From Octopus vulgaris (lineage: Eukaryota): 64,000 nt of DNA. The stretch is from assembly GCA_951406725.2 (NCBI GenBank), contig OX597843.1:4464001-4528000 (forward strand), written 5' to 3'. The notes under the pieces are model-generated. The model worked only from the letters and a program-made list of their open reading frames with translations, was not told the DNA's origin and did not search any database. Both the position numbers and the translations under genes were made by a program. This document shows, piece after piece, positions 3,064 through 64,000 of this stretch (position 1 is its first letter; each line of letters starts with the position of its first letter).

Positions 3064-3360
3064 GGATGAAAGGCAAAGTCGACCCCGGCGGAATTTGAAC
3101 TCAGAACGTAACGGCAGACGAAATACCTATTTCTTTACTACCCACAAGGGGCTAAACACAGAGGGGGACAAACAAGGACAGACATAGGTATTAAGTCGAT
3201 TATATCGACCCCAGTGCGAAACTGGTACTTAATTTATCGACCCTGAAAGGATGAAAGGCAAAGTCGACCTCGGCGGAATTTGAACTCAGGACGTAACGGT
3301 AGACGAAATACCGCTAAGCATTTCGCCCGGCGTGCTAACGATTCTGCCAGCTCGCCGCCT
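3064..3360 (-). mobile_element. SINE family B, partly duplicated
   Basis: Core GCCGAGGTCGACTTTGCCTTTCATCC on the minus strand twice; other copies at 24355-24560, 33780-34195, 40245-40468. Confidence 0.75.
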
Positions 3361-43100: not shown

Positions 43101-46100
43101 CGGATTTCATTCATTTCATTGTCTAGCCTATCACACACCTTCATGACGCTGGGTTCTCCGCTGCTCTGCTGCTGCATAAACTTTCGGATAGTGCTCCATG
43201 CTCTCCAGGCATCTGCAAACGAAACGTATTCCTCTTCCACAATTACCTCGTCGTCTTCACTTTCCACCGGCTCTTCGTTATGCATTACCTCCTTTGCTAT
43301 TTCTTCTAGAGGGAAACATGTCGGACAATACAAGGGGCGGTAACTTGTATCAGATGTTACTAATGATACGAGGGGCCCGACAATAACGTTTTTCGCAGCA
43401 TCGATAATCTCCTTCTTTTCCTTCAGCGTAAACTCAGTCCGCTTGCGTTTCTGAGCTGACATTGTGTGCTACTTTCTGGACTTTTCCGCAAGATTTACAA
43501 ATACGAAATGTACAAAATGTAGGAGTACAAAATTTCGAAAAGTTGCATGCGCTTCAGTTTACAAGTGGCATAGTAAAAATTTTTTGTTTATTATTTGGCC
43601 GGGACCGCGCAAAACTGGCATAGTAGCGAGAGTTGACTGTATCACATTAATATATTGATAAGTATATGTTACAGTTGTTGAATGAAACTAGTCTAAATTC
43701 ACGATTATTTTAGCATTTAATTGAAACTCATGAGGGGTCTATTTTGGTCAGAAATATAGTAACGAAAGGGTTAATGCTTTGATAGGGTGGTGAGCTGGCA
43801 AAATGCTTAGTAGCATTTCATCTGCCTTTGTTATGTTCTGAGTTCAAATCCCGCCGAGGTCTAATTGGTTTTTCATCCATTTCGGGGTCAATGTAATTGA
43901 CTTAACCCTCTCCCCTATAATTGCTGGCCTTGTACCAAAATTTGAAACTAATACTCTTTTACTCGTTTCAGTCATTTGACTGCGGCCATGCTGGAGCACC
44001 GCTTTTAGTCGAGCAAATCGACCCCGGGACTTATTCTTTGTAAGCCCAGTACTTATTCTATCGGTCTCTTTTGCCGAACCGCTAAGTGACGGGGACGTAA
44101 ACACACCAGCATCGGTTGTCAAGCAATGCTAGGGGGACAAACACACACGCATATATACGACAGGCTTCTTTCAGTTTCCGTCTACCAAATCCACTCACAA
44201 GGCATTGGTCGGCCCGGGGCTATAGCAGAAGACACTCGCCCAAGGTGCCACGCAGTGGGACTGAACCCGGAACCATGTGGTTGGTAAGCAAGCTACTTAC
44301 CACACAGCCACACCTGCACCTATATATACGACGGGCTTCTTTCAGTTTCCGTCTACCAAATCCACTCACAAGGCTTTGGTTGGCCCGAGGCTATAGCAGA
44401 AGACACTTGCCCAAGGTGCCACACAGTGGGACTGAACCCGGAACCATGTGGTGGGTTAGCAAGCCACTTACCACACAGCCACTCCTGCATACATATATAC
44501 GACGGGCTTCTTTCAGTTTCCGTCTACCAAATCCACTCACAAGGCTTTGGTTGGCCCGAGGCTATAGCAGAAGACACTTGCCCAAGGTGCCACACAGTGG
44601 GACTGAACCCGGAACCATGTGGTGGGTTAGCAAGCCACTTACCACACAGCCACTCCTGCATACATATATACGACGGGCTTCTTTCAGTTTCCGTCTACCA
44701 AATCCACTCACAAGGCTTTGGTTGGCCCGAGGCTATAGCAGAAGACACTTGCCCAAGGTGCCACACAGTGGGACTGAACCCGGAACCATGTGGTGGGTTA
44801 GCAAGCCACTTACCACACAGCCACTCCTGCGCCTGTATTAAATTTTGATACATGTTCTTGTATTTAATTGTTTTTATCGTTGTTTTTTTTTCTTCTTCTT
44901 TTCTTTGCAGGTTCGTAACCTGTGTTATATGGTGAGTCGCCGGGAGAAGATGAAGCGTCACTATTACCGAGTGAAGGAGAGTGTGTTTCAAGCCCAAGTG
45001 GAACTACTCACCAGTGACAAACAACTGATGACCTCGCGGGAGGTGAACAAGATCCTTGCCAAATATGAAGACAACAGCATCTATAACGTGTTCCTTATGC
45101 AAGACCACGACCCCGACACGACAGTCCTGTCCGACTGGGGCATATCACGGGTAGGCTACGAAGACTTCATCAAGCGCCACTTGTCCTTTGGCGCCTCCGA
45201 CAGCAAACACCAGTCGGTCTACCGTAGCCCGCAGCGGACGCCGATGTCTGTGAAAGGGTGCGTGCGGAAGAAGGCGCGCCAATCTCCGTCCAGCGAGAAC
45301 AGTAAACGAGAAGGGATGCCGAAGTATGACATTAAGAAGTTGATCCCTCACAAGAACAAGGAGAACGCGAAGTCTGATGATGACGATGATGAGAGCCAGG
45401 GGTCCGGGGACAACGACGCCCCGGAGAACTTGCTCCCGAAACGGCAACCGACAAAGAAAATGATTAAGAGAACGATCGGCCCTTGTCGGAATGTTTTGAA
45501 GGATCGCAAGTGTTCCCTGCTGACGACACCGAACAAGACGAGCAGCGGTCGGAAGAGCAAATTGAAGAGCATCATCAAAGTTCATAAGTTGAAATTTGAA
45601 AAAAAGGCCCTGAAAAAGAAGCTGGCCGATAAATTCAGCCACAACCAGCATTTGTCGCAGAGATATCCGAAGTTCAAGATGATCGACTATCCGATATCGG
45701 ATGTGAAGGTCGAGAAAACGGAAGCTAACGAAAACAAGGACAAATCGAACGTATTGCTGGATGTGAGTGTCCACCAAAACAAGGGTGGCCCTGTTTTGAG
45801 CCTGAAACAAAGGCGCCGGTTCGGTCATCACAAAATGAAGCGGGAGAACTCGCAGCAGACGGATGACGTCCCGAGCCAGGACTCCGACGATGATGAACTG
45901 ACTCGGTACACCGTGACACCTTTGAAACCGACCGGCCACGTTTCGGAACGCATCAAGGCTGAATTGCATGGTCTGTTGGAGAAATCTAAGCTGTTGGTGC
46001 CTGAGAAATTGCGGGAGAATCTGCAGGATAAGTTATTGCAATCCAAGAAGATTCAGTGCTTCATGAGTAATTTACAAAAGAACTGCCATCCTCCCGATTA

Positions 46101-46386
46101 CAATTCCTCTTATTGGAGGTTTGCCAAAATGACGCGGAAGCACATCCAAGACTACCTCGCTGATGATTGCTCTGCTCTCGAGAACCAGGAAAACGGCACC
46201 GCCTCCTCCGTCTTCGACCGGTTGTCTTCGGGCCTCTTCAAATACGTTCACGACGATTGGTACGAGGGCGGCCACAACAGCGGCGTGGGCCCCGCGGACG
46301 ACTACAAGGCTCAGAAGTACGTTCCGACGTCCAACGGCAAGCAGACGCGGCTGTTGGGGGGCGAGGAACGACATCGACATCATCAT

Positions 46387-46421
<35 letters not shown>

Positions 46422-46944
46422 GAGGCATTTGAACAACTCTGATCACAGTAAAACCTGTCCAAGGTTGTCACTCGAGCGTCGAGTACGACGGAAGCTAAGC
46501 CACGATTTGGACGCTTGCCGGGTGAGTGACCCCTTGGTTAATTGCACTCCACTGCAGGAGAATTCATCTGAAACTCAAGCTGACATTGTGAGTAGTAGCA
46601 CTAGTAATAATAATAATAATAACAACAATAATAATAACAATAATAATAATAATAACACTGACACATTTAAAACTTGTCGACAAGCGACGCAGCCGCATGA
46701 GGGACCACACGACGACGAAGACTCTGAGAATATTGACCACAGTATATATGTTGACTCTTTCAGGCGACTCTCCGCGATTCCACGGCGAATCACTCGCAGC
46801 CTCACCACCGAATGGAACGGTGATGACGGCGGGGGCGAAAGCAGCGGCAAGTCATCTTCATCTTCATCTTCGTCAAAGCAGTTCCCCAAATCGAAGCCGG
46901 CCGAAGTGAGCAGGAGTTACCGCTCGCTGTCCACTTCCAGCTGA
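13789..46944 (+). CDS. Jade: Jade-family PHD finger protein (JADE1/2/3, PHF17, Drosophila rhinoceros homolog), 16 coding exons, about 1179 aa
   Basis: join(13789..13804,23733..23795,25542..25609,26443..26600,27582..27620,29043..29212,29364..29422,30654..30743,33047..33109,34467..34585,36350..36455,37393..37566,39811..39944,41335..41455,42527..42652,44911..46944) = 3540 nt, open frame, all introns GT-AG. Motifs [29 protein letters not shown], [17 protein letters not shown], [28 protein letters not shown] are diagnostic of JADE proteins. Vertebrate paralog number cannot be assigned. Confidence 0.93.
13950..15340. repeat. Minisatellite, about 10 copies of a 125-142 bp AT-rich unit
   Basis: CATATCTATGTCTTAATGTTTGAATAT recurs about every 140 bp; unit contains the hairpin GGGTACT-TGTAT-AGTACCC. 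Confidence 0.95.
15885..15993. repeat. (TCTA)n microsatellite
   Basis: Read directly. Confidence 0.95.
16628..17171. mobile_element. MITE, second copy of the 5533-5953 family
   Basis: Same long TIRs; internal (TG)n/(TATG)n expanded; an internal fragment also at 15341-15560. Confidence 0.8.
17239..17513. mobile_element. MULE-like MITE with 9-bp TSD
   Basis: TIRs GGCATCCCTTCGATATAACTCGAC / GTCGAGTTATATCGAAAGAATGCC; flanks AAAAAGTTT and GAAAAGTTT (8/9). Confidence 0.7.
17804..18190 (-). mobile_element. SINE family A, full length
   Basis: Reverse complement match. Confidence 0.85.
18608..19002 (+). mobile_element. SINE family A, full length
   Basis: Direct match to 4948-5360. Confidence 0.85.
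19163..21408 (-). mobile_element. 5'-truncated RTE-like LINE insertion with internal 103-bp array
   Basis: Minus strand encodes [33 protein letters not shown]; flanked by CTGTGCCTAA(T/C)GT at 19150 and 21409 (TSD). Confidence 0.8.
19338..21393. repeat. Tandem array, about 20 x 103 bp
   Basis: GGTTGGGTTCCAGATCAG at 19338, 19441, 19544 and onward with constant period. Confidence 0.97.
22095..22780 (-). mobile_element. Two fragments of RTE-like family D 3' UTR
   Basis: 22095-22365 and 22530-22780 match the reverse complement of 38450-38916. Confidence 0.7.
23077..23286. mobile_element. Tc1/mariner-type MITE
   Basis: TA|CAGGATGTCCTAGAAGTCGCGCACCATTCTGG and CCAGGATGGTGCGCAACTTCTGGAACACCCTG are imperfect inverted repeats. 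Confidence 0.75.
23733..23795 (+). CDS. Jade: Jade exon 2 ([20 protein letters not shown])
   Basis: TTGCAG|..|GTAAGT, phase 1-1; basic-then-acidic stretch like the JADE N-terminus. Confidence 0.8.
23877..24250 (+). mobile_element. SINE family C, near full length
   Basis: Near-identical to the reverse complement of 56965-57340. Confidence 0.8.
24355..24560 (+). mobile_element. SINE family B
   Basis: GAGTTCAAATTCCGCCGAGGTCGACTTTGCCTTTCATCC core; decayed copies follow at 24650-25055. Confidence 0.75.
25056..25470 (+). mobile_element. CR1-clade LINE 3' fragment (second family)
   Basis: [38 protein letters not shown], classic CR1 ORF2 tail, with an in-frame stop. Confidence 0.85.
25542..25609 (+). 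CDS. Jade: Jade exon 3 ([22 protein letters not shown])
   Basis: ATACAG|..|GTAAGT; KPAE joins LFRKDL as in JADE. Confidence 0.88.
26050..26348 (+). mobile_element. RTE-like family D 3' end with (GAT)n tail
   Basis: Matches 38560-38916; further pieces at 26935-27280 and 27830-28303. Confidence 0.75.
26443..26600 (+). CDS. Jade: Jade exon 4 (EPC-N/EPL1 region)
   Basis: [33 protein letters not shown]; AG/GT boundaries. Confidence 0.95.
27582..27620 (+). CDS. Jade: Jade exon 5, 39-nt microexon ([12 protein letters not shown])
   Basis: TTTCAG|..|GTAAGT, phase 2-2, open in frame. Confidence 0.75.
29043..29212 (+). CDS. Jade: Jade exon 6
   Basis: [27 protein letters not shown]; |GTAAGT donor. 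Confidence 0.92.
29364..29422 (+). CDS. Jade: Jade exon 7
   Basis: [19 protein letters not shown]; TGTAG|..|GTAAAT. Confidence 0.92.
29790..30577 (-). repeat. Tandem array of SINE-A heads, about 4.5 x 174 bp
   Basis: GTGGGACTGAA at 29821, 29994, 30168, 30342, 30519. Confidence 0.92.
30654..30743 (+). CDS. Jade: Jade exon 8 (start of PHD1)
   Basis: [30 protein letters not shown]. Confidence 0.96.
30775..31795. repeat. Four near-tandem copies of a 130-250 bp element fragment
   Basis: TCTTTTCGGTTTGACCGGCAGTTTT at about 30778, 31056, 31308, 31589; family not identified. Confidence 0.85.
31798..32112 (-). mobile_element. Two tandem SINE-A heads
   Basis: Duplicated head separated by (TA)n. Confidence 0.8.
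33047..33109 (+). CDS. Jade: Jade exon 9 (PHD1)
   Basis: [21 protein letters not shown]. Confidence 0.96.
33780..34195 (-). mobile_element. SINE family B, tandemly duplicated
   Basis: Same duplication pattern as 3064-3360; older decayed copies at 33385-33780. Confidence 0.75.
34467..34585 (+). CDS. Jade: Jade exon 10 (PHD1 end, Zn knuckle)
   Basis: [40 protein letters not shown]. Confidence 0.96.
34902..35604 (-). mobile_element. Non-autonomous Helitron-like element with internal about 195-bp tandem repeat
   Basis: Minus strand starts TCTATATATAAAG and ends CCCGAGCAATGCCAGG..CTAG|T; 5' part also at 25845-26035 (+). Confidence 0.65.
35798..36189 (-). mobile_element. SINE family A, full length
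   Basis: Reverse complement match. Confidence 0.85.
36350..36455 (+). CDS. Jade: Jade exon 11
   Basis: [35 protein letters not shown]. Confidence 0.96.
37393..37566 (+). CDS. Jade: Jade exon 12 (PHD2)
   Basis: [40 protein letters not shown]. Confidence 0.96.
38247..38916 (+). mobile_element. RTE-clade LINE 3' end (family D) with ORF2 tail, repetitive 3' UTR and (GAT)n tail
   Basis: [35 protein letters not shown] is an RTE/BovB-type C-terminus. Confidence 0.85.
39335..39546. mobile_element. piggyBac-like MITE with TTAA TSD
   Basis: TTAA|CCCTTTAGC...TAAGGG|TTAA. Confidence 0.8.
39811..39944 (+). CDS. Jade: Jade exon 13
   Basis: AYCPKHS completes PHD2; |GTAAGT donor. Confidence 0.94.
40495..41318 (+). 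mobile_element. Tx1/L1-like LINE 3' fragment
   Basis: [19 protein letters not shown] resembles the fragment at 59299-59547; ends AATAAA plus (ATT)n. Confidence 0.55.
40771..41100. repeat. Tandem array, about 3.7 x 89 bp
   Basis: TAAAAGGAGAAAGGGGCTCTCTACC at 40771, 40861, 40950, 41039. Confidence 0.95.
41335..41455 (+). CDS. Jade: Jade exon 14
   Basis: [22 protein letters not shown]. Confidence 0.95.
41819..42290 (+). mobile_element. Helitron-like 5' fragment, internally duplicated (about 160 bp x2)
   Basis: A|TCTCTATATATATAAACGGC start; no 3' CTAG end found. Confidence 0.4.
42527..42652 (+). CDS. Jade: Jade exon 15
   Basis: [25 protein letters not shown]. Confidence 0.96.
42849..43639 (-). 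mobile_element. Tigger/pogo-family DNA transposon, internally deleted
   Basis: Perfect 24-bp TIRs CAGTCAACTCTCGCTACTATGCCA, TA on both sides; ORF 43049..43462 has a CENP-B-type N-terminus ([16 protein letters not shown]) and a Tigger-type C-terminus ([12 protein letters not shown]). Confidence 0.88.
43953..44835 (-). mobile_element. SINE family A with head amplified to 4 x 171 bp
   Basis: GTGGGACTGAA at 44255, 44426, 44597, 44768; a single 3' body at 43953-44150. Confidence 0.9.
44911..46944 (+). CDS. Jade: Jade terminal exon 16 (677 codons plus stop)
   Basis: TTTGCAG|[13 protein letters not shown]; ORF 44845..46944; low-complexity tail with polyQ, polyN, polyS. Confidence 0.93.
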
Positions 46945-47976: not shown

Positions 47977-50448
47977 ACATACCGCTGGTCACAGTGTGCT
48001 TCCTTATATGGTTCTAGCTTTCTAATGATGCCACCACTGCGGCCATCCTGGGGCACCACTTTGACAAATTCTTAATCAAATGGATCGACTTGCAAGACTG
48101 AAAGTCTTTCAAAGCCTGGTACTTATTCCATCAGTCTCTTTTGCCAAACTGCTAAGTTACGGGGATGTAAATAAACCAATACCGGTTATCAGAGAATAGT
48201 GTGTGTGTGTGGGGGAGGCACAGATGCAGACACGCATATACATGCACACAGTGGGCTTCTTTCAGTTTCCGTCTACCAAATCCACTCACAAGGCATTGGT
48301 CGACCCAGGGCTGTAGTAGAAGACACGTGTCTAAGGTGCCATGAAGTGGGACTGAACCAGGAACCATGTGGTTGGTAAGCGAGCTACTTACCACACAGCC
48401 ACACCTGTCTGTGCGCGTTTGTGTATGTGTGTGCATCTTTGTGTCTATGTCTGTTCCCCCACACCATCACTTGACAACTGGTGTTGGTTTGTTTACGTCC
48501 CCATTGCTTACTACAATAAGTACCAGGTTTTAAAAAAAAACAATAATAGCACTGGAGTTGATTTATGTGACTAAAAATTCTTCAAGGTGTTGCCCCAGCA
48601 TGGCCACGGTTTAATGACTGAAACAAGTAAAAGATAAAATATGTAAATGTATATATAAATGGTTTTTCATGTTTACTTTTCTATGCCAGCATGGGTTAGA
48701 TGAGTGTTGTGTTGAGGCAGAGTTTCATATAGCTGGGTACCCTTCTTGACTCATCAAATAACAAACACCCCAGAAATGGTTACACAGGCTCTTAGAAACG
48801 AATGATACCAAATTAATTAATCTTTGGTTTATAGGCGCAGGAGTGGCTGTGTGGTAAGTAGCTTGCTAAGCAACCACATGGTTCCGGGTTCAGTCCCACT
48901 GCGTGGCATCTTGGGCAAGTGTCTTCTGCTATAGCCTTGGGTCGACCAATGCCTTGTGAGTGGATCTGGTAGATGGAAACTGAAAGAAGCCTGTCGAATA
49001 TGTGTGTACACCATTTGATGATGGGTGTTGGTTTGTTGACATTTGTGTGATTTAGCCATTAAGCCTTGTGAGTGGATTTGGTGGATGGCAACTGAAAGAA
49101 GCCTGTCTTTGTGTTGGTCTGATTATTTCCTCATAACTTAGTGGTTTGGCAAAAGAGACCAATAGAATAAGTTACCAAGCGCAGGAGTGGCTGTGTAGTA
49201 AGTAGCTTGCTTACCAACCACATGGTTCCGGGTTCAGTCCCACTGCGTGGCACCTTGGCAAGTGTCTTCTCCTATAGCCTCGGGCCAACCAAAGCCTTGT
49301 GAATGGATTTGGTAGACGGAAACTGAAAGAAGCCTGTCTTGTATATATATATATGTATGTATGTATATATATATATGTTTGTGTGTCTGTGTTTGTCCCC
49401 TCAACATCACCTGACAACTGATGCTGGTGTGTTTATGTCCCCGTAACTCAGCGGTTCAGCAAAAGAGACCGATAGAATAAGTGCTAGGCTTACAAAGAAT
49501 ATTTCCCAGGGTCGATTTGCTCGACTAAAGGCGGTGCTCCAGCATGGCCGCAGTCAAATGACTGAAACGAGTAAAAGAGTAAAGATTTTAAAAAAAAATA
49601 ATGGGGTCAAATTCATTTGACTAAAATTATTCCAGATGGTGCCCCAGCATGGCTACAGTTCAGTGATTGGAACAAACTAAATATAAGATGTGTGTTTTAA
49701 ATGAAAAATACCCGGTGACAAGTGAAAATTTTCTAAATAATCATTATTATTTACTAAAGCTTTTAAACATTCACAAAAAATGGATAGTATGTGTTTGGGT
49801 ATTAGCACCCTTATAGCAAGAATAAGACGTGGGTTCAATTCTCATGCTCGGTAGTACCTTTTTTTTTTCTTTTTTTTTTGGGGCGAGGGCTTATATGCCT
49901 CAGTGTTAGACTATTTTCTATAGCCAGACCGGTGTCTGCTACTCTAGGCCGACGAAGGACAATCATCCTGAAACACGTGTCCCTAGATGCAGCCCGGAAA
50001 AAAGCCCCTAGTGGGTAATAAAGAAAGTGTTTTCTATAGCCATTATTATACAGTGAACACTTATAAGCCAAAAGGCTTATAATTATTATTAACAGAATAG
50101 GCGTAGGAGTGGCTGTGTGGTAAGTAGCTTGCTTACCAACCACAGGGTTCCGGGTTCAGTCCCACTGCGTGACACCTTGGGCAAGTGTCTTCTACTATAG
50201 CCTCAGGCTGACCAAAGCCTTGTGAGTGGATTTGGTAGACGGAAACTGAAAGAAGCCTGTCGTATATATATATATATATATATATAGGTGCAGGAGTGGC
50301 TGTGTGGTAAGTAGCTTGCTTACCAACCACAGGGTTCCGGGTTCAGTCCCACTGCGTGGCACGTTGGGCAAGTGTCTTCTACTATAGCCTCGGGCCGACC
50401 AAAGCCTTGTGAGTAGATTTGGTAGACGGAAACTGAAAGAAGCCCGTC

Positions 50449-50647: not shown

Positions 50648-51248
50648 ACAAATGCACATAACACATACATACATGTATACACACAGAAAACATATATCTA
50701 TTATATATACACATAAATGCATGTGTATATATTATAGCTATGTATATATGTTCACACACACAGACAAATAAGTGAAACCATATTTTGTTGGGTCCCGCCA
50801 TCATCAGTGGGATTGTGGCAAAAACAAAAGAAATAACATAAAAACCTGTTGCAAACCTTGTTATATGACATTGTTAATTGTTTAATTGTTACATTTATGC
50901 ATTTGTTTTCCGCAAGATTCTTAATGTGAAATCCTGTCGAAACGGGTGTCGTTATATTTTGGGGGTGGTCTTTTTTTTTTTGTGCTTGCCAAATAAACAC
51001 ACACCTATGTATTTGTTCTTCTCTTCAGCTTTCTTACCATTCTTATTTTATATCCGTTGTCTGAAAATCTTTTGTCACGTCTCCTGTGACCTCTTCAGTA
51101 ACTCTCCATCCCATGTGTCTCCCATTCTGTTTAGTCTGTTCTATCTTTCTATATCTGTGCATGCATTTGCATTTCTACCTGTGCATATGTATATGGGTTT
51201 ACTTACTATACTGTTCTTACCCATAACTTATTTTTTTTTTATTATTTA

Positions 51249-51754
51249 CCATAAATCCTCAAGTATAATCCGCATTTTTTTCCCCAAAATTTAAAAGGCA
51301 AAATCCCTAGTGCGTACTATATACGAGGTTAAAAATGAAAAATATTTTCTAAGCAATGTCCGAGTCTCTATTTGCTGTCTGACAATATTTATTCAGATGC
51401 ATTTTGTGATGTTGGGTGTGAAAATCCCTTAAGCTAAGCCTGAAAGCAATGAAGTCATAAAAGAATCATCCATTACTTGCACTAAGCGACATTTATTAAA
51501 ATAAAAGTATTCAGAATACAGAATAACATTTAACAAAAACAATTTGCAAACATATTTACATTCCCATATAACAGTTAAGAACATCACCATTATTGTATTA
51601 CGCATGCGCAGAAGTGTTTGTTCGGCTAGGTGCTGATGGCTTAATTTCACACAACTCAAGATAGAGAACGGGTGCATATTATACACAAGGTTTAGGTTTT
51701 TCAGAGGTACAGCCTCCTAAAAATCCCCTGCGTATTATACTCGAGGATTTAAGG
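51249..51754. mobile_element. Tc1/mariner-superfamily (Tc2/pogo-like) MITE
   Basis: TA|CCATAAATCCTCAAGTATAATCCGCA ... TGCGTATTATACTCGAGGATTTAAGG|TA. Confidence 0.8.
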
Positions 51755-52134
51755 TACTTATTTCTCTGTTTTTCTTTCTCATTCCGTCTTAAGTATGTCT
51801 ATGTGTGTCATGTGTGTGTGTGTGTGTATAGGTTTTGAAAAACAAAAGGCACCGATACAAACAGTATAATACATAATGGATTAAACAGAACTGGAGGAAA
51901 CACATGGGATGGAGAGCCGCTGCTGAGGTCACAGGATGTGTGATGAAAGATTTCAGACAAAGGACGCTAAAATAAGAATTATATTAAATCTGAAGTGAAG
52001 GAGTATATCATGCATGTGTTTAATTGGGAGGAGGGAATCAACATCCTGAAATATAACAATAATTGTTTATCATTAAGTTTCCCTGTCTGAAGGGTTTTCA
52101 TTTTTCTCTTATATTCCTCCAACCCTGATGGCTT

Positions 52135-52965
52135 CATTGAAAAAAAAGTTCATTTCTTCTTTTGAATCTTAAACACTAGCAATTGTCCTCTGATGTTTGA
52201 GATTTGGTTGGGTAGAGAGATGCCAAGGACCTAAGACACTGCTGATTGAGTCCATAAATTCAAAATTGCTTTTGACCCTACCCAATCAGCCGCCGGCAAA
52301 ATTTTTACATTTAAGAGCCTGGCAGGGTCACCACCCTGACCCCAAGAGATAAGTATCTTTTATCCATTAAGTTTCTATTCAGGGTGGCAGCCCACACCCT
52401 CAGGCACTTATCAATTTTTGCCCACCATAGGTGGGGAGAAACCAAATTAGGGTTATAGTCAAATTTTTGAGCCTCCGCAGGGGTGTCGAAAAGCACACCC
52501 ACCGTTGTGTACCTCGCACCCCAGTGGATAAACCTAAAATTTAGCAGGTATCCTACCAATTCGTTTTCTATATCAAAATTGCTTTTGACCCTACCCAATC
52601 AGCCGCCGGCAAAATTTTTACATTTAAGAGCCTGGCAGGGTCACCACCCAGACCCCAAAAGATAAGTATCTTCTATCCATTCAGTTTCTATTCCGGGTGG
52701 CAGCCCACACCCTCAGGCTTTTGTCAATTTTTGCCCACCATAGGTGGGGAAAAACAAAATTAGGGTTAGGGTCAAATTTTTGAGCCTCTGCAGGGGTGTC
52801 TAAAAGCGCACCCACCGTTGTGTACCTCGCACCCCAGTGGATAAACCTAAAATTTGGCAGGTATCCTACCAACTCGTTTTCTATATCAAAATTGCTTTTG
52901 ACCTGACCCAATCAGCCACCGTTGTGTACCTCGCACCCCAGTGGATAAACCTAAAATTTAGCAGG
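52135..52965 (-). repeat. Duplicated cassette containing a LINE ORF1-like fragment
   Basis: About 310-bp internal repeat; whole block recurs at 61588-62105 and 62675-63190; minus frame FIHWGARYTTVGVLFDTPAEAQKF aligns by eye with YIAKGSGYGTVVVQFGTEEEAKRL of ORF 54715..55542. Confidence 0.75.
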
Positions 52966-54300
52966 CTAAACTCCGGCTTTTGTCAATTTTTTGGTTGAAA
53001 ATCTTTTGCGCGTTCATTTCGTACAGCTGTTTTGCATTACGGAGGGTATTTTTGAGCATCGTGTTGAAGCGCGCATGAATACAGCTTGATTTCACGTCAG
53101 TGACGTCACAATGTGTAACTGTAAAAGATGTCATGCCGCAGGAAGATAGTCCGACTTTATAGCGCATGTCGTTGTGAGGTTTGACACTCCGGATACCAAA
53201 GTGAACGGTGTTGTTCCACCATAGCGTGTTGAAGATGGATTCAGGTGTGTTCGGACCGAGCTGGTCACATTCCCATAGCTTGTTGATATCATCGTCGGAG
53301 AGAGATTCTGCGCGTCGAGGTAGGTTTTCCATTCCTTCACTTTTCAACACCTTTTGCTTTGTTTTTAGTACGTCATGTAGTTTCACGAATGTCCCGTCCG
53401 AGAATAGTGACGTCGAGTAGTGTTTTGACTTCAGATATCTTTCAATACTGGATAACATTCCCCTCAAAGATGAAGGTTCATAATTGCTACCGTCCAGCTT
53501 TTGTAACGAGATAAAGAAAGTACACAGAATGTCACAAAGTTCACTTTTGTCGATAGATTCAATTGGACGCGTGTTGCCATAAAAGCAAACAATCGTTTAA
53601 CATCATAGTTTGTTTTCCGAAGAGTATTTTTATTTTGGTTACCTTGAATGAATTTGTCTATTCCAGAATGATTATACCTCGGTTGAAATTCAAGTTCATT
53701 ATTGCTCTCATCAAAGAAATCGTCACGAAGAAGATCATTGTACACCTCATCAGAGATGTTAGATCTAGGGTTCAATGACACTGTTTCAGGTACCTTCGTT
53801 AACCTGTCGAACTTGGCCAGTATTGATCTTCACTTTGAACATTCTGTATGTTCCAAGAGGTTGAACAACGGATAACACTCTTCCCCCATCTTTACCATCA
53901 ATCTTAACAAAATCATTCACCTTGATATCGACAACAGTAGCCATCTCGTTCATAGATCTACCTGCACTGCAAGAGTATCGACGAGCAGACGAAATATGTT
54001 GGGATTTTTTGGGCAACAAAAAATTGAATTACCACCAGAAATGTTTATATTTTATGTGTATATGACTTTCAGTGATATCTGGTATAAAAAAAGATAGTAT
54101 GTTTGTTTAATTACATGGCTACATTCTACCTGCTCGTGAAAGTAATGAATGAAGTTTAGTTCTAACTTATGAATGACAAAAGTAGTGCCGTCACCGTGAC
54201 CTCGGGTCATCACCATGGATTGACCAATCAGAAGCAGCGCTCGCAGTATCTGACATATGTTAGATACCAAAAATATCTCAAAGTGTTCTCGCTCACATGT
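52966..54300 (-). mobile_element. Crypton-like (tyrosine recombinase, DUF3504-type) transposon remnant
   Basis: Frameshifted ORFs 53464..53781 (NQNKNTLRKTNYDVKRL) and 52958..53467 (SSIERYLK..AESLS..KLW..QLG..TP..WWNNTVHFGIR) match the CryptonA/ZMYM/QRICH1/KCTD1 domain pattern from memory; boundaries approximate. Confidence 0.75.
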
Positions 54301-54714
54301 GTGTAATAACAATTAAGAATATGTAAATATAAAAGGATACTGAGAAAATAAATTAAGTTTATGATAACATGCATGATATCTGAAAATGAAAATATGAAGA
54401 GTGTGCTACTCACCCCACTCTGAGTAACACCAGTCGCTGCCTTTGAGTCCGAATTCGTCTTTAGTCCCTGGTCTGATCCTTCTATTTCCGCTCTCACTAT
54501 CGCTTAATGACAACATTCTCTCGCTGCCTTTTTCACCGGGGGAGGGGTTTTCTAAATCCTGTGGTGTCTGCTCTTTTTTCTTGTGGGGGAAAGGGAGTGG
54601 GTGGGATGGAGTTGGACTGGGGTACGATATCACACTCAGTGTTCTTTCTTTTCTTCCTCTTCTTCCCTCTGCAACTATCCATTCTTCCTCCTTTCGTCCG
54701 TCTTTCTTTTCATC

Positions 54715-55542
54715 CTATTTTCTCTCCTTCGTCTCCACAACTGGTTCATCTGTTTTTTCCTCTATCTTTTTCTTCTGTAGTGGGCAGTGTGCTCTAATGT
54801 GGCCTTTTTGGCCACATTTAAAGCATCGCGGGATTCTGCCCTCTACCCATACTCTCAATACTATTTCTCCCATCGTCACCGTTTCCGCCAAATTTTCCAG
54901 CTCCTTCGCCTCCGCTTCTATGATCATTTCCAGTATTTTTCCTCTGTAGCTTCCTTCCTCTGTCTCTGTGGCTTGGAGGACAGTCATCTCCTCCTCACTT
55001 CCAACGAGGACGGCTGCCGCAACCCAAGTCACTTTTATATCAGGTGGAATTCCTTCTACCCTCACCTTGGAAGTCTTTCTTCCAAGGTAAGTGGGTAGAA
55101 GTACTAGTTCCTCAGATTTTGCAGTTGTACTTGCCAGCCTCTTTGCCTCCTCTTCTGTCCCAAACTGGACAACCACCGTCCCATATCCGCTTCCTTTTGC
55201 TATATATCTTACTTCCTTCGAAAGCCCCTTCAGAGCTTCTACTTTTTCCATCTTCATCCGCTCCACACTCCTACTCTCCACTGAGTGCACCATGTAGGTA
55301 ATAGTCTTCTTTTCCATATTTACCATAACCCTTTTCCGGGATAATAACTTTACGTCACTTCCCACCTCCAGTGTCATCTTACACAGCTCCTTCAGTTCGG
55401 TTGGGTCTACTTCCTTTTTCTTTACCTCTGCCGCGTCAGCAAAACTCTTTGCTCTTTCCAAATGCTCGTCCATTCTGTTTACCGCCTTAACGAGCTCCTC
55501 CTCTGATGAGGATAGTTCATACTCGCTAAGGTCTGAATACAT
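54715..55542 (-). pseudogene. Tx1/L1-like LINE ORF1 (gag-like) with CCHC zinc knuckle
   Basis: 275-aa ORF ending GRIPRCFKCGQKGHIRAHC; no ORF2 follows. Confidence 0.8.
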
Positions 55543-55624
55543 TCTCTTCCACTAGTACAACACTCGCCGAGAAACCGCTGGCAAGCAGCTCAAAAGATTC
55601 CGTTCGCCTTGTCAAAACTCGACG

Positions 55625-55895
55625 CATGCTCGACCTTATGTGGCCTTCCTCGCCACATTTGTAACACCTGGGCTTTCTACCCTCGACTACCACCATCATG
55701 CTTGTATTTTCTCCAATTGTAAGGGAAATGGGCAATTTTTCTAAGTCTGAGGGGTTTGCTTGGATGACAAGCTCTAAATCTTTTTCAATCACAGCTTTTT
55801 TCCTCAACAGTTCTCGTAACAGTGCAAACAGCTGCAAACGTATTTTCGGGCAATGTTTATATACCTTGTAGCTCACTCCATTGTTCCCTGGTGTG
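55625..55895 (-). pseudogene. Chimeric RT-fragment/ORF1-knuckle piece
   Basis: PGNNGVSYKVYK..LFALL fused to EGRKPRCYKCGEEGH; a deleted duplicate of 57690-58305. Confidence 0.7.
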
Positions 55896-55904
55896 GCAAC
55901 GACC

Positions 55905-56460
55905 TCGCTCAAATGGTGCCCTTTTACGTGCCACTGGCACAGGTGCCAGTAAGACGACTTTGGTAACGATCACGCTCGAATGGTGCCCTTTTACGTGCCA
56001 CCGGCACAGGTGCCAGTAAGACGACTCTGGTAACGATCACGCTCGGATGGTGCCCTTTTACGTGCCACTGGCACAGGTGCCAGTAAGACGACTTTGGTAA
56101 CGATCACGCTCGAATGGTGCCCTTTTACGTGCCACTGGCACAGGTGCCGGTAAGACGACTTTGGTAACGATCACGCTCGGATGGTGCCCTTTTACATGCC
56201 ACCAGCACAGGTGCCAGTAGGACGACTTTGGTAACGATCACGCTCGGATGGTGCCCTTTTACGTGCCACCGGCACAGGTGCCAGTAGGACGACTTTGGTA
56301 ACGATCACGCTCGGATGGTGCCCTTTTACGTGCCACTGGCACAGGTGCCAGTAAGACGACTTTGGTAACGATCACGCTCGAATGGTGCCCTTTTACGTGC
56401 CACTGGCACAGGTGCCGGTAAGACGACTTTGGTAACGATCACGCTCGAATGGTGCCCTTT
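55905..56460. repeat. Tandem array, about 8 x 67 bp, from the RTE family D 3' UTR repeat
   Basis: TGGTGCCCTTTTACGTGCC at 55914, 55981, 56048 and onward; unit has the palindrome ACTGGCAC-AG-GTGCCAGT. Confidence 0.95.
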
Positions 56461-56866
56461 AATACAACTCTGGTCTTACAGCCGTTTCTGTTTTGGGGAT
56501 CCAATGTGCTAAAGTTGACATATACAAAAGTTGAACTCGAAAGCTTCATCAGAGAGTCATTAAGTCCTTAATGGTAAGGATAGGAGGTTAAAAGTAAAGC
56601 CCAGGGCTATATTCAGAAGTTGTGAGATCACATCTGATTGCAGTCTATATTATATGTATATATTTGTGTGTCTTTGTGACCACCACTACTGCTTGACAAC
56701 CAGTGTTGGTTGTCTACATCCCCGTAACTTAGCAGTTCGGCAAAAGGAGTAAATACCAGGCTTCAAAAATAAATAAGTACTGGGGCCTATTTTTTTTCAA
56801 GGAGGTGCCCCAGCGTGGCCACTGTTTAATGACAGGGAGAAGTAAAAGATAGAAGATATATATACA

Positions 56867-57480
56867 CAGGTGTGCAAGAAGTAAATACACACCTGTAATT
56901 TTCAAACTCGTTTGTTTGATGCGCAAAGCAAAGATTTGCAATGTAATCGATAGGTAGGACTAAATGGAAGTGGAAGCACTCCGTCGGTTACGGCGACGAG
57001 GGTTCCGGTTGATCCGAATCAACGGAACAGCCTGCTCGTGAAATTAACGTGTAAGTGGCTGAGCACTCCACAGACACGTGCACCCTTAACGTAGTTCTCG
57101 GGGATATTCAGGTTGACACAGAGAGTGACAAGGCCGGCCCTTTGAAATACAGGAAGAAAGAGTGAGAGAAAGTTGTGGTGAAAGAGTACAGCAGGGATCA
57201 CCACCATCCCCTGCCGGAGACTCGTGGAGCTTTGGGTGTTTTCGCTCAGTAAACACTCACAACGCCCGGTCTGGGAATCGAAACCGCGATCCTACGACCG
57301 TGAGTCCGCTGCCCTAACCACTGGGCCATTGCGCCTCCACATACTAAATACTTTAGTATTTGGTTGACATTCCGTTTGCAGTTTTTAATTCAGAAACTCT
57401 TTTTGGCATTGAACTGATGAGCTTTGTGATTGTCTTTTGTGGAATTTTTGCCCACTTTTCATGCAACGATTGCATAGTCC
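56867..57480 (-). mobile_element. Tc1-like transposon 3' end interrupted by SINE C (56965-57340)
   Basis: WAKIPQKTITKLISSMPKRVSELKTANGMSTKY* is a Tc1 DDE transposase C-terminus; TIR-like CAGGTGTGCAAGAAGTAAATACAC at 56867. Confidence 0.8.
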
Positions 57481-57499
57481 TATGTATGCAAAGAGGGTG

Positions 57500-58190
57500 G
57501 GGTCCTTCCATTTCTGTCTTCTCTTTGATGGTCCCACGGTGACCCACTCCTGGTTGTTGTCTTCTTGCACTGCTGGCTGTTCTTTGGTATTTTGTGCATG
57601 CGATGCAGCTGCTATTTCTAGCAGTGTAGTTCTTGTTTTCGGCGTCGTGCTTGCCTCTGCAGTATTTTCTTTGGCTGTCTTCTTCTTGCAGCTCGACCTT
57701 ATGTAGCCTTTCTCGCCACATTTATAGCACCTAGGTTTTCTTCCCTCGACTATTACCATCAAGCTGGTATTATCTCCAATGGTGAGGGAGCTTGGCAATT
57801 TTTCCAAGTCCGAGGGGTTCGCTTGGATCACAAATTCTAAGTCTTGTCCATACCAGGTTGTGGGGCAATATCTTTTAGACTGAAGAATGGCAATTTCTTC
57901 CTTTTTGCCTAAGAGAATCGCTGCTGTTATGAAGTCCACATCTATTTCGGGCGGAATGTCCGTGACTGTTATCCTGCTAGTTCTCATTCCTAAATAAAAA
58001 GGTAGAAGAACTACCTCGTCTGACTTCAACGTTGTTGTTGAATGTTCCCTAGCTATTTCTTCGCTAGGGAAACGCACCTCTACCGTTCCGAAGCAACTAC
58101 CCCTTGTTATATACGTAGTTTGTTGCCATATCGGCCTCAAACATTTTTCTATGGCCTCTCTCTGCACGAAGTCAATTTTCTTATTCTTGA
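57500..58190 (-). pseudogene. Second Tx1/L1-like ORF1 fragment with CCHC knuckle
   Basis: YITRGSCFGTVEVRF..LLPFYLG..GRKPRCYKCGEKGYIRSSC. Confidence 0.8.
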
Positions 58191-58380
58191 CAGTTTTTCT
58201 ATCACAGCTTTTTTCCTCAACAGTTCTCGTAGCAGTGCAAACAGCTGCAAACGTATTTTCGGGCAATGTTTATATACCTTGTAGATCACTCCATTGTTCC
58301 CTGGTGAACCTTTTGCTCTTGCTTTTCTTATGAACTCATCCATTTCTTTCCGTTTGATGTCACTCAAATCAAATGGTACT
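58190..58380 (-). pseudogene. Non-LTR reverse transcriptase N-terminal fragment
   Basis: KARAKGSPGNNGVIYKVYK resembles the conserved (K/S)xPGxDG motif of RT domain 0. Confidence 0.6.
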
Positions 58381-58499
58381 CTTCTGGCGGCACTTCTGCA
58401 ATCTTGACCCGGGACGTCCTATGTCCCATCTAGGTCGGGAGAAGTACCAACTCCTTAGTTTTTAGGGGACTATCGGAATTCCTGCGGGCCACCTCTTCC

Positions 58500-58955
58500 C
58501 CCGAGGAGCTGGGTCAATTGCTTCGTAGACGAATTCTCCTGGTTGACGACGGAGGGCATGACCCAGCCAACGCTGACCTGAGTGTAGCTGGGGGTGGGAC
58601 ATCAGGAATCTACAAGGGAGTTCTCGTTTCTTGTCTTGAGACAGCATCCACCCGGGGTAGGTTGAGCTGGCTTCATTCATCCTCAATGCTGCATCTCTCA
58701 CAAACGCCGACCAGGCCTGGCGATTTGAGGCCAACGGCCACGTGATCTCCAACCACTCCTTATTCCAGCGGCGAACGCCGTAGATATGGAGGCCTAGGTT
58801 GGGTTCCAGATCAGCCTTGACTGTCATCAGCCAGGTTTTTTGTTGTCCACCACATCGCTTTCGCCAACCCTGAAGGGTTGATGGGGCAATTGCTTCATGG
58901 GTTGGGTTCCAGATCAGCCTTGACTGTCATCAGCCAGGTTTTTCGTTGTCCAACC
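58500..58955 (-). mobile_element. RTE-like fragments of the 19.2-21.4 kb family, in permuted order
   Basis: RWLGHALRRQPGEFVYEAIDPAP lies after, not before, the 3' end on the minus strand. Confidence 0.8.
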
Positions 58956-59099
58956 ATGAAGGGTTGCTGGCCTTGTGCCATAATATGAAACCAAGATAAT
59001 AAGAGTAATGTGTATTCAATAATGAAAGCATTTAGAATTCTTAAACTTCCAAATAGTTCGTCTTTCTTCTTAAGATTGATTTCTTTATTACCCACTAGG

Positions 59100-60564
59100 G
59101 GCGACATAGAGTAAACATACAATCACGAATGATGAAACCATTATGAACATTTGGGGTCAGTTAAAATCGAAAATGAATAATAAAATCGAATGATTACACA
59201 AAGACAAAGTAAACAAATTAGAAAATGCAGTGGGGCGGGTTCGCGACCCCATGTTTCCCGCCACGACACTTAACCTTGTGGTTTCATTTTTTTTTCTCCT
59301 ATCTCGCGTTTGTGAGGGATCCTTTACTTGCCACATTTTTCCATCTTTCATCAAGCACTTTCCTACTCAGGCTCCTTCTCTCCAGTTCTATATGTCTTTT
59401 CAGGTGGAATTTAAAATATTCCACCAGACCTGAACCAGAGATGTAGTCACCTGTTATCATCCCTTTCGTCCTTGTCTTCCATACTGCCTGCATCGCAGTT
59501 GAAACCACGGCGAGGGGTTTCCTTGATCTCCATGGACATTCCTCCAATACTTCCTGTCCTTAGTTCTTGTCTACAAATCCGCAACTGATAGGCTGTTGTC
59601 GATCATTAGTCTGTCAACATGTTAGAGCCAGTCACACTTTGCCCCTATGGTCATCCTGATTACCCAACCATGGACGTTCCCTCCCCCGACAGATGTGTTG
59701 CTCCTTTGATAGAGCTTGATGGCCATGACCATGGATCTTCTAAGATTCCTCAATCTAAAAAGCACCGTTGGCTCAGTTGTTCTCTTCTGTTGTCTCTTGA
59801 CAATCTGCCGTGCTACAGTGTCTTGACTTCACCGTAACCCCTGGCAGGGTTGCTGAAGGGGTGCTATGATTTGCCAAAGGGCAGCTTGTAACTCTGCAGG
59901 GCACAGTCATCATTCCATACCACTTATTCTCTTGCTAGAGCTTGGTGACGAAGCCATCCGCCATGTTGTGAACAACAGAATATTCCCACATGTGGGTGTC
60001 AGAAGGAAGAACAAGCTATTTAAAATACTTCTGTTGAAGAAGAAATCTGTGATAGAAAAAATGTCCATGATTTTCTCATAGTCATTCAGGAGGGGCGAGA
60101 AGGCTTGTAGACTGTCCAGCTTGGTCTCTGTAGCAACCATCACATGTACTGTATGTTGGGAGCAGCACCACATCCTTTGTTTTTAGATGACTCACTGAGT
60201 GCTCTTGTGCTTCATCGTCCGTCTCGAATCTGTCTTCTATTGTTCCATATACCTGGCCCCTCACTATGTATTTTATATCTTTCCATATAGGGACCTGGCA
60301 TTTTTCTATTTCACACTTTCGAAAGTTCTTAAATTTTTTTGATGAAAGATGGTACGTTTTGTAAACGACTGTCCTCTTCATATTTTCAACACTAGGTGAG
60401 GGTGAGATCTTTATATCCCCACCCTCCTCTTTCATTCTCTGAAAAAGCTCAGAGAGCTTCTCTGTTTCAATTGTAATACTTCTTGAAGACACAGCAGCTA
60501 CTGTCGCGAACTTTTTGGCTGGCTCTTGCAGCTGGTTTGCTTCTTGAATTATTTCGACCAACAT
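59100..60564 (-). pseudogene. Tx1/L1-like fragments: ORF2 C-terminus, endonuclease start, third ORF1 piece
   Basis: AMQAVWKTR..FHLKRHIELE (59299..59547); HVMVATETKL (60065-60145); YIVRGQVYGTIEDRF..LLPTY (60082..60564). Confidence 0.65.
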
Positions 60565-63500
60565 ACTCGGTCAAAATTGAGTCTACTTAGTAAAGTTTTC
60601 AATTATACTCCCTAAAAACAGTCAAGTTTGAGAGGGCAATAAACAGAACAACTTTTGTTGGATCCGTTTTTATTAAATTTTTAACCCCTTCGATGTCATT
60701 CATCCAAATTCTATCAGTTATTCTCGTATGCGCCATGTGGGATCTTTATTTTTGGTTAAATATTTAAAAAATGTCAATAAAGAGAACAACTTAATTTTGT
60801 TGGATCCATTCTTATTATATTTCTAACCCCTTCGATGTCATCCATCCAAATTTTCTCAGTGATACTCGTATGCGCCATGTGGGATCTGGATTGTCTTTTA
60901 TGAGCGTCTGAACTACTTCGATGTCTGCAGAGCCAAGCCTTTACGAATCAGTACCAATTACACCCCCTTGCCTTCCGGACCGGCTAGGAGACATGATTTT
61001 CTCATAGTCATTCAGGAGGGGCTAGAAGGCTTGTAGACTGTCCAGCTTGGTCTCTGTAGCAACCATCACATGCATATCGTGTGATCTGAGGTCGTCGAGG
61101 AAACAAGCTTTTTTTTTTTTTGCTGGCTCATGCAGCTGGTTTGCTTCTTGAATTATTTCGACCAACATACTCGGTCAAAATTGATTCTTACATAGTAAAG
61201 TTTTCAATTATACTCCCTAAAAACAGTCAAATTTGAGAAGGCAATAAACAGAACAACTTTTGTTGGATCCATTTTTACGAGTCTTTCCACTCCTTTGATG
61301 TCACCCATCTAAATTTTATCAGTGATTCTCAGATGCGCCATGTGGGGTCTCAATTTTTGGTTAAATATTTATAAAAATGTCGATGATGAGGATTAGAGGA
61401 AAGAGGCAAAGAAAGAAATGAAATATTATGGACAAATTTATGTGGTTACTTAGCAACATTTCATATTGTGTATAAAATAATAAACAGTCGAATTTGAGAA
61501 GGCAATAAACAGAACAACTTTTGTTGGATCCTTTTTTATTAATTTTTTAACCCCTTTGATGTCATCCATCCAAGATTTTCTCAGTGATTCATTGAAAAGA
61601 AAGTTCATTTCTTCTTTTGAATCTTAAACACTAGCAGTTGTCCTCTGATGTTTGAGATTTGGTTGGGTAGAGAGATGCCAAGGACCTAAGACACTGCTGA
61701 TTGAATCCATAAGGTCAAAATAGCTTTTGACCTGACCCAATCAGCCGCCGTTGTGTACCTCGCACCCCAGTGGATAAACCTAAAATTTAGCAGGTATCCT
61801 ACCAACTCATTTTCTATATCAAAATTTCTTTTGACCCTACCCAATCAGCCGCCGGCAAAATTTTTACATTTAAGAGCCTGGCAGGGTCAACACCCAGACC
61901 CCAAAAGATAAGTATCTTCTATCCATTCAGTTTCTATTCAGGGTGGCAGCCCACACCCTCAGGCTTTTGTCAATTTTTGCCCACCATAGGTGGGGAGAAA
62001 CCAAATTAGGGTTATAGTCAAATTTTTGAGCCTCCGCATGGGTGTTGAAAAGCACACCCACCATTGTGTACCTCACACCCCAGTGGATAAACCTAAAATT
62101 TGGCTACTGCCACGAACTTTTTTGCTGGCTCATGCAGCTGGTTTGCTTCTTGAATTATTTCGACCAACATCCTCGGTCGAAATTGATTCTTACATAGTAA
62201 AGTTTTCAATTATACTCCCTAAAAACAGTCAAATTTGAGAAGGCAATAAACAGAACAACTTTTGTTGGATCCATTTTTACGAGTCTTTCCACTCCTTTGA
62301 TGTCACTCATCTAAATTTTATCAGTGATTCTCAGATGCGCCATGTGGGGTCTCAATTTTTGGTTAAATATTTATAAAAATGTCGATGATGAGGATTAGAG
62401 GAAAGAGGCAAAGAAAGAAATGAAATATTATGGACAAATTTATGTGGTTACTTAGCAACATTTCATATTCTGTATAAAATAATAAACAGTCAAATTTGAG
62501 AAGGCAATAAACAGAACAACTTTTGTTGGATCCTTTTTTATTAATTTTTTAACTCCTTCGATATCATTCATCCAAATTTTCTCAGTGTTTCTCGTATGCA
62601 CCATGTGGGATCTGGATTGTCTTTTATGAGCATCTGAACTCCTTCAATGTCACTGATCAAAATTTTCTCTGTGATTCATTGAAAAGAAAGTTTATTTCTT
62701 TTGAATCTTAAACACTAGCAGTTGTCCTCTGATGTTTGAGATTTGGTTGGGTAGAGAGATGCCAAGGTCCTAAGACACTGCTGATTGAGTCCATAAGGTG
62801 AAAATTGCTTTTGACCTGACACAATCAGCCGCCGTTGTGTACCTTGCACCCCAGTGGATAAACCTAAAATTTGGCAGGTATCCTACCAACTCGTTTTCTA
62901 TATCAAAATTGCTTTTGACCCTACCCAATCAAACGCTGGCCAAATTTTTACATTTAAGAGCCTTGCATGGTCACCACCCAGACCCCAAAAGATGGGTATC
63001 TTCTATCCATTCGGTTTCTATTCCGGGTGACAGCCCACACCCTCAGGCGCTTGTCAATTTTTGCCCACCATAGGTGGGGAGAAACCAAATTAGGGTTATA
63101 GTCAAATTTTTGAGCCTCCGCAGGGGTGTCGAAAAGCACACCCACCGTTGTGTACCTCGCACCCCAGTGGATAAACCTAAAATTTGGCTACTGCCGCGAA
63201 CTTTTTTGCTGGCTCATCCAGCTGGTTTGCTTCTTGAATTATTTCGACCAACATACTCGGTCAAAATTGATTCTTACATTGTAAAGTTTTCAATTATACT
63301 CCCTAAAAACAGTCAAATTTGAGGAGGCAATAAACAACAACTTTTGTTGGATCCTTTTTTATTAAATTTTTAACCCCTTCAATGTCATCCATCCAAATTT
63401 TCTCAGTGATTCTCGTATGCGCCATGTGGGATCTGGATTGTCTTTTATGAGCGTCTGAACTCCTTCGATGTCTGCAGAGCCAAGCCTTTACGAATCAGTA

Positions 63501-64000
63501 CCAATTACACCCCCTTGCCTTCCGGACCGGCTAGGAGACATGATTTTCTCATAGTCATTCAGGAGGGGCTAGAAGGCTTGTAGACTGTCCAGCTTGGTCT
63601 CTGTAGCAACCATCACATGCATATCGTGTGATCTGAGGTCGTCGAGGAAACAAGCTTTTTTTTTTGCTTGCTCATGCAGCTGGTTTGCTTCTTGAATTAT
63701 TTCGACCAACATACTCGGTCGAAATTGATTCTCACATAATAAAGTTTTCAATTATACTCCCTAAAAACGGTCAAATTTGAGAAGGCAATAAACAGAACAA
63801 CTTTTGTTGGATCCATTTTTACGAGTCTTTCCACTCCTTTGATGTCACTCATCTAAATTTTATCAGTGATTCTCAGATGTGCCATGTGGGATCTCAATTT
63901 TTGGTTAAATATTTATAAAAATGTCAATGATGAGGATTAGAGGAAAGAGGCAAAGAAAGAAATGAAATATTATGGACAAATTTATGTGGTTACTTAGCAA
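60540..64000. repeat. Complex higher-order repeat of LINE-fragment cassettes, runs off window end
   Basis: About 1.09-kb (61588 vs 62675) and about 2.55-kb (60901 vs 63448) periodicities. Confidence 0.85.

Follow-up and report, generated by a model that had tools for sequence, protein, structure and literature searches.

Why does a stretch of at least 12 kb, lying behind a protein-coding gene of Octopus vulgaris, consist almost wholly of transposon-derived pieces that face the same way? The block in question occupies positions 52133-64000 of a window of 64,000 nucleotides (the whole stretch analysed, from contig OX597843.1), begins 5.2 kb downstream of the stop codon of a Jade-like gene (46944, plus strand) and continues beyond the right end of the window. 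It is a mosaic of co-oriented fragments, low in copy number and with local duplications, and we propose, at roughly even chances, that this mosaic acts as a uni-strand cluster of PIWI-interacting RNAs (piRNAs). The patchwork of unrelated transposon fragments described in the original prediction was borne out, with corrections and at a higher density than had been noted, and its interpretation as a uni-strand cluster is plausible and partly supported.

The density of the block, its diversity and its concentration of open reading frame 1 (ORF1) pieces of long interspersed nuclear elements (LINEs) set it apart. By length, about 10.9 kb reads on the minus strand, 0.2 kb on the plus strand and 0.8 kb has no assigned orientation; the duplicates beyond 61110 (2.9 kb) were scored as minus by descent. 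All long repeats inside the block are direct and 81-99% alike in self-comparison, and duplicates amount to about one third of its length. Microsatellite content is zero, as opposed to 0.4-8% per 4 kb elsewhere in the window. The coding pieces confirmed by database or profile, all on the minus strand, comprise a Crypton-type recombinase, the C-terminus of a Tc1 transposase and six pieces of the ORF1 family:

52133..52965, minus: ORF1f, decayed and frameshifted, a 313 bp tandem repeat in 2.1 copies (Tandem Repeats Finder; tblastn to homologue P0104, E 1e-19)
52966..54420, minus: Crypton-type fragment (Pfam DUF3504, E 2e-8; QRICH1, E 1e-6)
54421..55627, minus: ORF1a, near-complete, with start codon and zinc knuckle (zf-CCHC) and no ORF2 behind it
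55628..55783, minus: ORF1b, a zinc-knuckle fragment 85% like ORF1c (sequence comparison)
56865..57466, minus: Tc1 transposase C-terminus with stop and 3' end (residues 195-230 of Sleeping Beauty, E 0.004)
57467..58193, minus: ORF1c, without its N-terminus (tblastn and profile)
58382..58507, minus: ORF1d fragment (E 9e-14 to homologue P0072)
60151..60570, minus: ORF1e, N-terminal half (tblastn and profile)
60571..64000, minus: patchwork in which the start and flank of ORF1e, ORF1f and a piece resembling an apurinic/apyrimidinic endonuclease (APE) recur as direct duplicates (81-99%), running off the window (self-blast)

The ORF1 family was sought by tblastn with 142 of 150 phmmer hits, the 8 left out being low-complexity or zinc-knuckle-only, and by a profile built from 131 of the 142 homologues and run over the window. 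Four or more divergent ORF1s had been predicted and six were found. The sixth, which had not been named as coding, is the 313-bp repeat at the start of the block; it matches an Octopus sinensis protein at E 1e-19, and further copies of it lie at 61588-62104 and 62675-63188 (92-98% in self-blast). The 131-homologue profile gave no match at E<1 in 1-52132, and the presence of all six pieces in the block has a p of 4e-5 under uniform placement. Its matches in 60571..64000 are all minus. Compared pairwise, five of the pieces share 30-55% protein identity, except for ORF1b and ORF1c (85%). ORF1a has 393 phmmer hits, the best of them 80% identical from the start methionine, and the relatives of the family include annotated proteins of Octopus vulgaris, O. 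sinensis and O. bimaculoides (four of the ten looked up, plus one more). The zf-CCHC domain of the pieces, together with atlas neighbours of the zf-CCHC, RRM_1 and ZCCHC3-like types, fits a Tx1-type ORF1, that is, an RRM-like region followed by a CCHC knuckle. The label Tx1-like is nevertheless our assumption, and neither the block nor the 22 hits scanned showed a reverse transcriptase (RT) domain linked to ORF1. The gene models P0008, P0059, P0074 and P0099, in which the family is fused to C2H2 zinc-finger arrays, Helitron helicase, astacin and LDL-receptor repeats, are probably prediction chimeras, and the fusion with C2H2 zinc fingers might be a real exaptation.

The Crypton-like recombinase and the Tc1 transposase end named in the original prediction are likewise supported by the matches given above. 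The former holds a truncated recombinase frame at 52961-53596 and further frames up to 54028, with 54030-54420 lacking an assignment. The Tc1 piece, whose 3' end we take to be a terminal repeat, is split by a short interspersed nuclear element (SINE C), and contigs that skip this SINE join both Tc1 halves. The other pieces of the block were named by motif, derive from SINEs or bear no assignment:

55781..55893, minus: 97% duplicate of the RT-like sequence 58194-58306 (self-blast)
55894..56460, minus: 67-bp tandem array of 8.5 units, from a SINE family common in the window (Tandem Repeats Finder, self-blast)
56461..56642, no strand: piece matching nothing in six frames
56643..56864, plus: decayed 3' part of SINE-A with ~70% identity to its other copies, the main piece in plus orientation
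56966..57342, minus: full-length SINE C, an ordinary insertion inside the Tc1 end, with a 7-bp target-site duplication (TSD)
58194..58381, minus: RT N-terminal-like fragment in an open frame, its border with ORF1c uncertain by ~40 bp
58505..58952, minus: RTE-like 3' end in two permuted pieces with a short internal duplication, of the same family as the intron array 19171-21411
58964..59000, plus: weak resemblance, over 31-37 bp, to the tail of a different SINE family (E 0.004-0.036)
59079..59600, minus: LINE 3' end with an ORF2 C-terminus-like frame, 3' untranslated region (UTR) and intact terminus (tblastn to 40550-40714, E 1e-4)
59601..60030, no strand: old low-copy piece, possibly RTE-like (six-frame comparison; border at 59600 estimated)
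60031..60065, plus: 35-bp junction piece that repeats 58189-58223 in inverted orientation (89%)
60066..60148, minus: APE-endonuclease-start-like piece (by motif, not confirmed by Pfam or PDB)

The RT-like, APE-like, ORF2-end-like and RTE-like pieces lie, as predicted, on the minus strand, in open or near-open frames. Their names are our assumption from motifs, which no database confirmed: word-index protein searches and Pfam were blank, the PDB hits were spurious and the atlas gave only unnamed clusters. Two metagenome matches to these pieces were bacterial, off-frame and due to chance. Fragment 58194..58381 may be HERO/NeSL-like; for 59601..60030, formerly read as a second RTE, neither identity nor strand could be established (best shuffle p 0.03-0.04, before correction). 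The APE-like piece has a longer copy at 60905-61110 and a third at ~63539-63619 (self-blast), and the sense of the 67-bp array was read from copies with a (GAT)n tail. The end point of the RTE-like piece coincides with that of its intron copy, and the piece carries a short duplication of a 103-bp unit which, in the RTE-like 3' end of the Jade intron (19171-21411), is repeated ~20 times. The LINE 3' end is multi-copy by depth, and its terminus is found at six other places in the window; this terminal sequence (59079-59122) recurs at 3129, 3600, 33782, 33966, 40422-40467 and 50004-50026 as the tail of a SINE family, which likely reflects a SINE-LINE partnership, and the copy at ~49925-50030 appears, by eye, to be flanked by 12-bp direct repeats. 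The earlier description of pieces abutting without tails or TSDs was too strong: the TSD of SINE C, the terminus at 59079, the RTE end and the retained start codon of ORF1a depart from it. Junctions that resemble rearrangement are those of the permuted RTE pieces, the nested tandem duplications and the 35-bp inverted copy. No duplication flanks the inverted pair 58189-58223 and 60031-60065, of which part is present a third time at 55781-55810; the pair may stem from a templated insertion or be what is left of the ends of a small element.

The statement that every orientable coding piece lies on the minus strand holds at 12 minus to 0 plus (p 0.0005 against 0.5; Fisher 0.005 against background), 8 of the 12 being assigned by database or profile match and 4 by motif. 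The database-verified pieces taken separately are 8:0 (p 0.008), and all oriented pieces of at least 100 bp are 14 minus to 1 plus (p 0.001). The plus orientation of the SINE-A piece at ~56650-56850 stood, and two more plus bits, at 58964-59000 and 60031-60065, had been missed. The background, which is local only, was drawn from nine repeat queries from the window, with tandem copies merged, upstream of the block; at 27 minus to 19 plus it is exceeded by both counts. The strand bias is real but, by count, moderate. Among the families of 1-52132, SINE-A is 16 minus to 5 plus, mostly in the Jade gene body, and the others are balanced.

Assembled contigs bear on both the integrity and the activity of the block. 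Matches to 52100-62000 were found in 24 sequencing runs, of which none is recorded as RNA, 20 with shares of 0.30-0.64 and four with 0.03-0.04, and four of the 24 (X9, X1, X10 and X16) were aligned to 56465-62100 at 90% likeness. X9 is a genome-sized contig set, of which ~80% was read; X1, X10 and X16 are sets of 76-199 million letters from three studies, presumed to be RNA, X16 coming from a second organism. Fifteen junctions were defined, bridging was taken as at least 31 letters, and joins were taken from the contigs listed. X9 bridges at least two of the 15 with 0-1 differences and a depth of 66-67, close to that of its other near-identical contigs (65-68, compared with 120-148 in the locally duplicated parts). 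Since these junctions lie at about single-copy depth, misassembly and a high-copy composite are unlikely, in agreement with the expectation that the block is not one element with many genomic copies. X1, X10 and X16 bridge at least seven of the 15, five of them with at most two differences, in sets whose RNA label is presumed and which offer neither strand nor a silent control. The second organism shares two junctions at 95-96.5% identity. Junction contigs reach a depth of 6-18 in sets of 105-199 Mb, and we infer that such depth would be hard to obtain from the whole-genome DNA of an organism with a DNA set of 3,306 Mb. Set against SINE C, the unique contig is represented ~12 times more strongly in X1 and X10 than it is in X9. 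With the caveat, issued by the tool itself, that contig depth is neither copy number nor expression, these figures hint that the block is transcribed.

The named pieces have a summed depth of ~6-4,700 times the unique level. Taken as a rough proxy, this suggests that most pieces have between tens and thousands of relatives with an identity of at least 90%, so that any piRNA guides from the block would have potential targets elsewhere. In a 757-bp contig of X10 (contig 13), a copy of 60150-60558 at 93% identity is fused to one of 58181-58511 at 96%; the contig is a diverged version of the mosaic, paralogue or allele, without 58512-60149. It carries, at 96% identity, a diverged second copy of the RT/ORF1d junction, whose summed depth in X9 is 269, ~4 times the unique level.

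We propose that a plus-strand transcript would arise here by read-through from the Jade-like gene or from a promoter near 52 kb, and would run antisense to numerous families of LINEs, SINEs, Cryptons and Tc1 elements. This RNA would be cut into PIWI guide RNAs, and selection would keep the antisense pieces. Deletions, tandem duplications and occasional templated copying would grind whole insertions down to fragments, a process expected to remove most tails and TSDs and to leave orientation unchanged. The upstream gene ends in the following exon:

44911..46944, plus: last coding exon of the Jade-like gene, a 700-codon open frame; exons further upstream, also plus, encode EPL1 and PHD-like domains

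The name Jade, presumed from this domain layout, is also that of the original prediction. Directly upstream of the block, 51018-52000 holds nested elements resembling miniature inverted-repeat transposable elements (outer arms 51018-51136 and 51879-52000, 78%; inner arms, by eye, near 51246 and 51757), which are a possible source of a promoter. The last Jade intron contains a small element with inverted ends (42849-43640) and a deleted transposase-like frame (43052-43468, minus) without a Pfam match.

Several observations weigh against a uni-strand cluster. Adding the two plus bits shorter than 40 bp lowers the count to 14:3 (p 0.013; Fisher 0.14), and pooling the ORF1s as one leaves a weaker bias of 9:1 (p 0.02). 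Same-strand runs of 7-10 elements occur in introns, and the count alone is moderate evidence because of these runs and because the block was chosen for looking biased. The 5.2-kb spacer between the Jade-like stop and the block carries repeats in both orientations. Among the contigs listed, 8 of the 15 junctions are not bridged, one of them falling short by a single letter. Neither a strand, nor small RNA, nor a link to Jade was observed. The 15 joints listed include none of splice type, and A>G differences are balanced by T>C differences, so that joints and editing give no strand information. The small sets, whose RNA label is a guess, could instead be reduced-representation DNA from assays of accessible chromatin (ATAC), chromatin immunoprecipitation (ChIP) or capture. 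AATAAA is no scarcer on the plus strand than expected, with 4 occurrences against 2.2 in the non-duplicated part and 15 against 4.1 in total, which argues mildly against unbroken plus-strand read-through. Finally, Pfam detected no domain of long terminal repeat (LTR) elements among 102 frames of 52.0-61.2 kb, which is unlike flamenco.

The alternative that survives best, though we consider it improbable, is a passive graveyard within an ordinary plus-strand transcript, be it a long 3' UTR, read-through, a long non-coding RNA or the intron of a further gene. Sense pieces would be purged as disturbing the RNA, duplication (about one third of the block) would inflate the bias, and no piRNAs of consequence would be made. 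The hints of transcription fit this explanation equally well, the Jade gene body already leans minus (26:17), and transposon fragments occur in more than 35% of assembled octopus transcripts (PMC9115989). However, the intronic lean is only ~60% and its elements are spaced by unique sequence and microsatellites, whereas the block is nearly all transposon, is free of microsatellite and holds six ORF1 pieces against none in 52 kb.

It is rather unlikely, but conceivable, that the mosaic was co-oriented from the start, as cDNA made by a LINE RT switching between sense RNAs during insertion or break repair; any RNA could then be minus-strand, from a LINE promoter further right. Such an origin would account for co-orientation and missing TSDs without selection, and is in keeping with the short and partly permuted pieces, with the 35-bp inverted templated copy at a junction and with the diverged contig that joins 60150 to 58511; chimeras of LINE-1 with other RNAs are documented (PMC13174262). 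Against this, decay varies widely, from intact frames to the frameshifted ORF1f and the 70% SINE-A, a spread that suggests a gradual build-up. The insertion of SINE C was an ordinary, later event, and this element too is minus; an mRNA would usually lack what looks like the terminal repeat of the Tc1 end; and priming at 3' ends predicts tails rather than an excess of ORF1.

Two further explanations have very little in their favour. Tx1- and HERO-like clades are often target-specific, and the dominance of the ORF1 family would suit repeated insertion of such LINEs into a shared target in fixed orientation, but Rfam gives no tRNA, snRNA or rRNA match in the block, there is no telomeric or microsatellite array, the Crypton, Tc1 and SINE pieces would stay unexplained and only one such LINE 3' end survives. 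The 29 Rfam matches obtained in the search for an RNA-gene target all fell on AT repeats upstream of the block, below the gathering score, and a telomere-addition model was unsupported, with no TTAGGG array and 6 scattered copies in the block. A large composite mobile element of Pack or Helitron type with many copies, or an assembly artefact, is just as improbable: the diverged second copy of the RT/ORF1d junction, the 35-bp inverted pair bracketing 58189-60065 and a right end outside the window would agree with it, but the X9 junction contigs lie at about single-copy depth with 0-1 differences from the window, the inverted pair lacks a TSD and no terminal structure was seen, by eye, at 52133.

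If the block is indeed a uni-strand piRNA cluster, a more specific form of this proposal, which we regard as doubtful, is that it represents an ORF1-focused cephalopod piRNA library, common to two octopus species, in which antisense 5' parts of LINEs are kept and expressed by read-through from Jade. Guides from such a library would hit full-length, mobilisation-competent LINE transcripts and spare the octopus mRNAs and long non-coding RNAs that contain 3'-truncated LINE remnants; an ORF1 excess throughout the genome would suggest that clusters can be moulded to aim at intact elements alone. LINEs and SINEs abound in octopus genomes, and the brain transcribes a full-length RTE LINE (PMC9115989). 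With such a library, LINE control in the octopus brain would become directly testable. The expression of piRNAs has been profiled in O. bimaculoides, according to the passages of PMC12479628 that describe it, and the supplement of that study, as far as its text goes, contains neither 'piRNA' nor 'Jade'. No octopus piRNA cluster locus was found described in the literature, subscription papers and most supplements not being covered. The block is thus a concrete candidate with unique junctions that can be checked against existing small-RNA data; if no piRNAs map to it, it is an ordinary though striking transposon graveyard.

The comparison with known systems places the proposed cluster among several partial counterparts. 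In the passages on the slug Arion vulgaris, piRNA clusters are mostly uni-stranded and densely packed with antisense fragments (PMC11615739). The octopus block resembles them in belonging to a mollusc and in its dense fragments on one strand, the slug piRNAs coming from the opposite strand; it is therefore less novel than the original prediction had rated it. In the slug, however, piRNAs were sequenced, whereas the octopus locus is known from DNA and contigs, and an excess of ORF1 does not figure in those slug passages. The mammalian piC-DoG clusters lie downstream of genes and arise by read-through, as outlined in the same source (PMC11615739), and read-through is also reported for the core clusters of mosquitoes in the part of the preprint devoted to them (bioRxiv 10.1101/2022.08.22.504762). 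With these the block shares a dense store of antisense pieces that lies, on the predicted strand of the transcript, a few kb behind a protein-coding gene; it differs in its mixed spacer, in that read-through is here what we infer, and in a cargo of LINE ORF1, Crypton, Tc1 and SINE pieces rather than the L1/ERV or viral inserts of those passages. The Drosophila flamenco and flam-like clusters are, in the sections describing them, hundreds of kb long, with a bias driven by Gypsy (PMC10643416). Both are strand-biased fragment mosaics, but no LTR piece was found in the 12 kb visible here, and because Gypsy drives the bias of flamenco, the block is not flamenco-like in the strict sense. In Crassostrea gigas, Academ, Crypton and Tx1 are the most abundant elements of the class 4 somatic piRNA clusters (PMC6128900, section on these clusters), which is akin to the dominance of Crypton and Tx1-like pieces in the octopus block; transposons make up only 31% of the clusters of C. 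gigas, for whose inserts no strand bias is described in that section (PMC6128900). What is particular to the octopus block is its excess of ORF1, its place behind a gene and the contig-based hint of transcription in two organisms.

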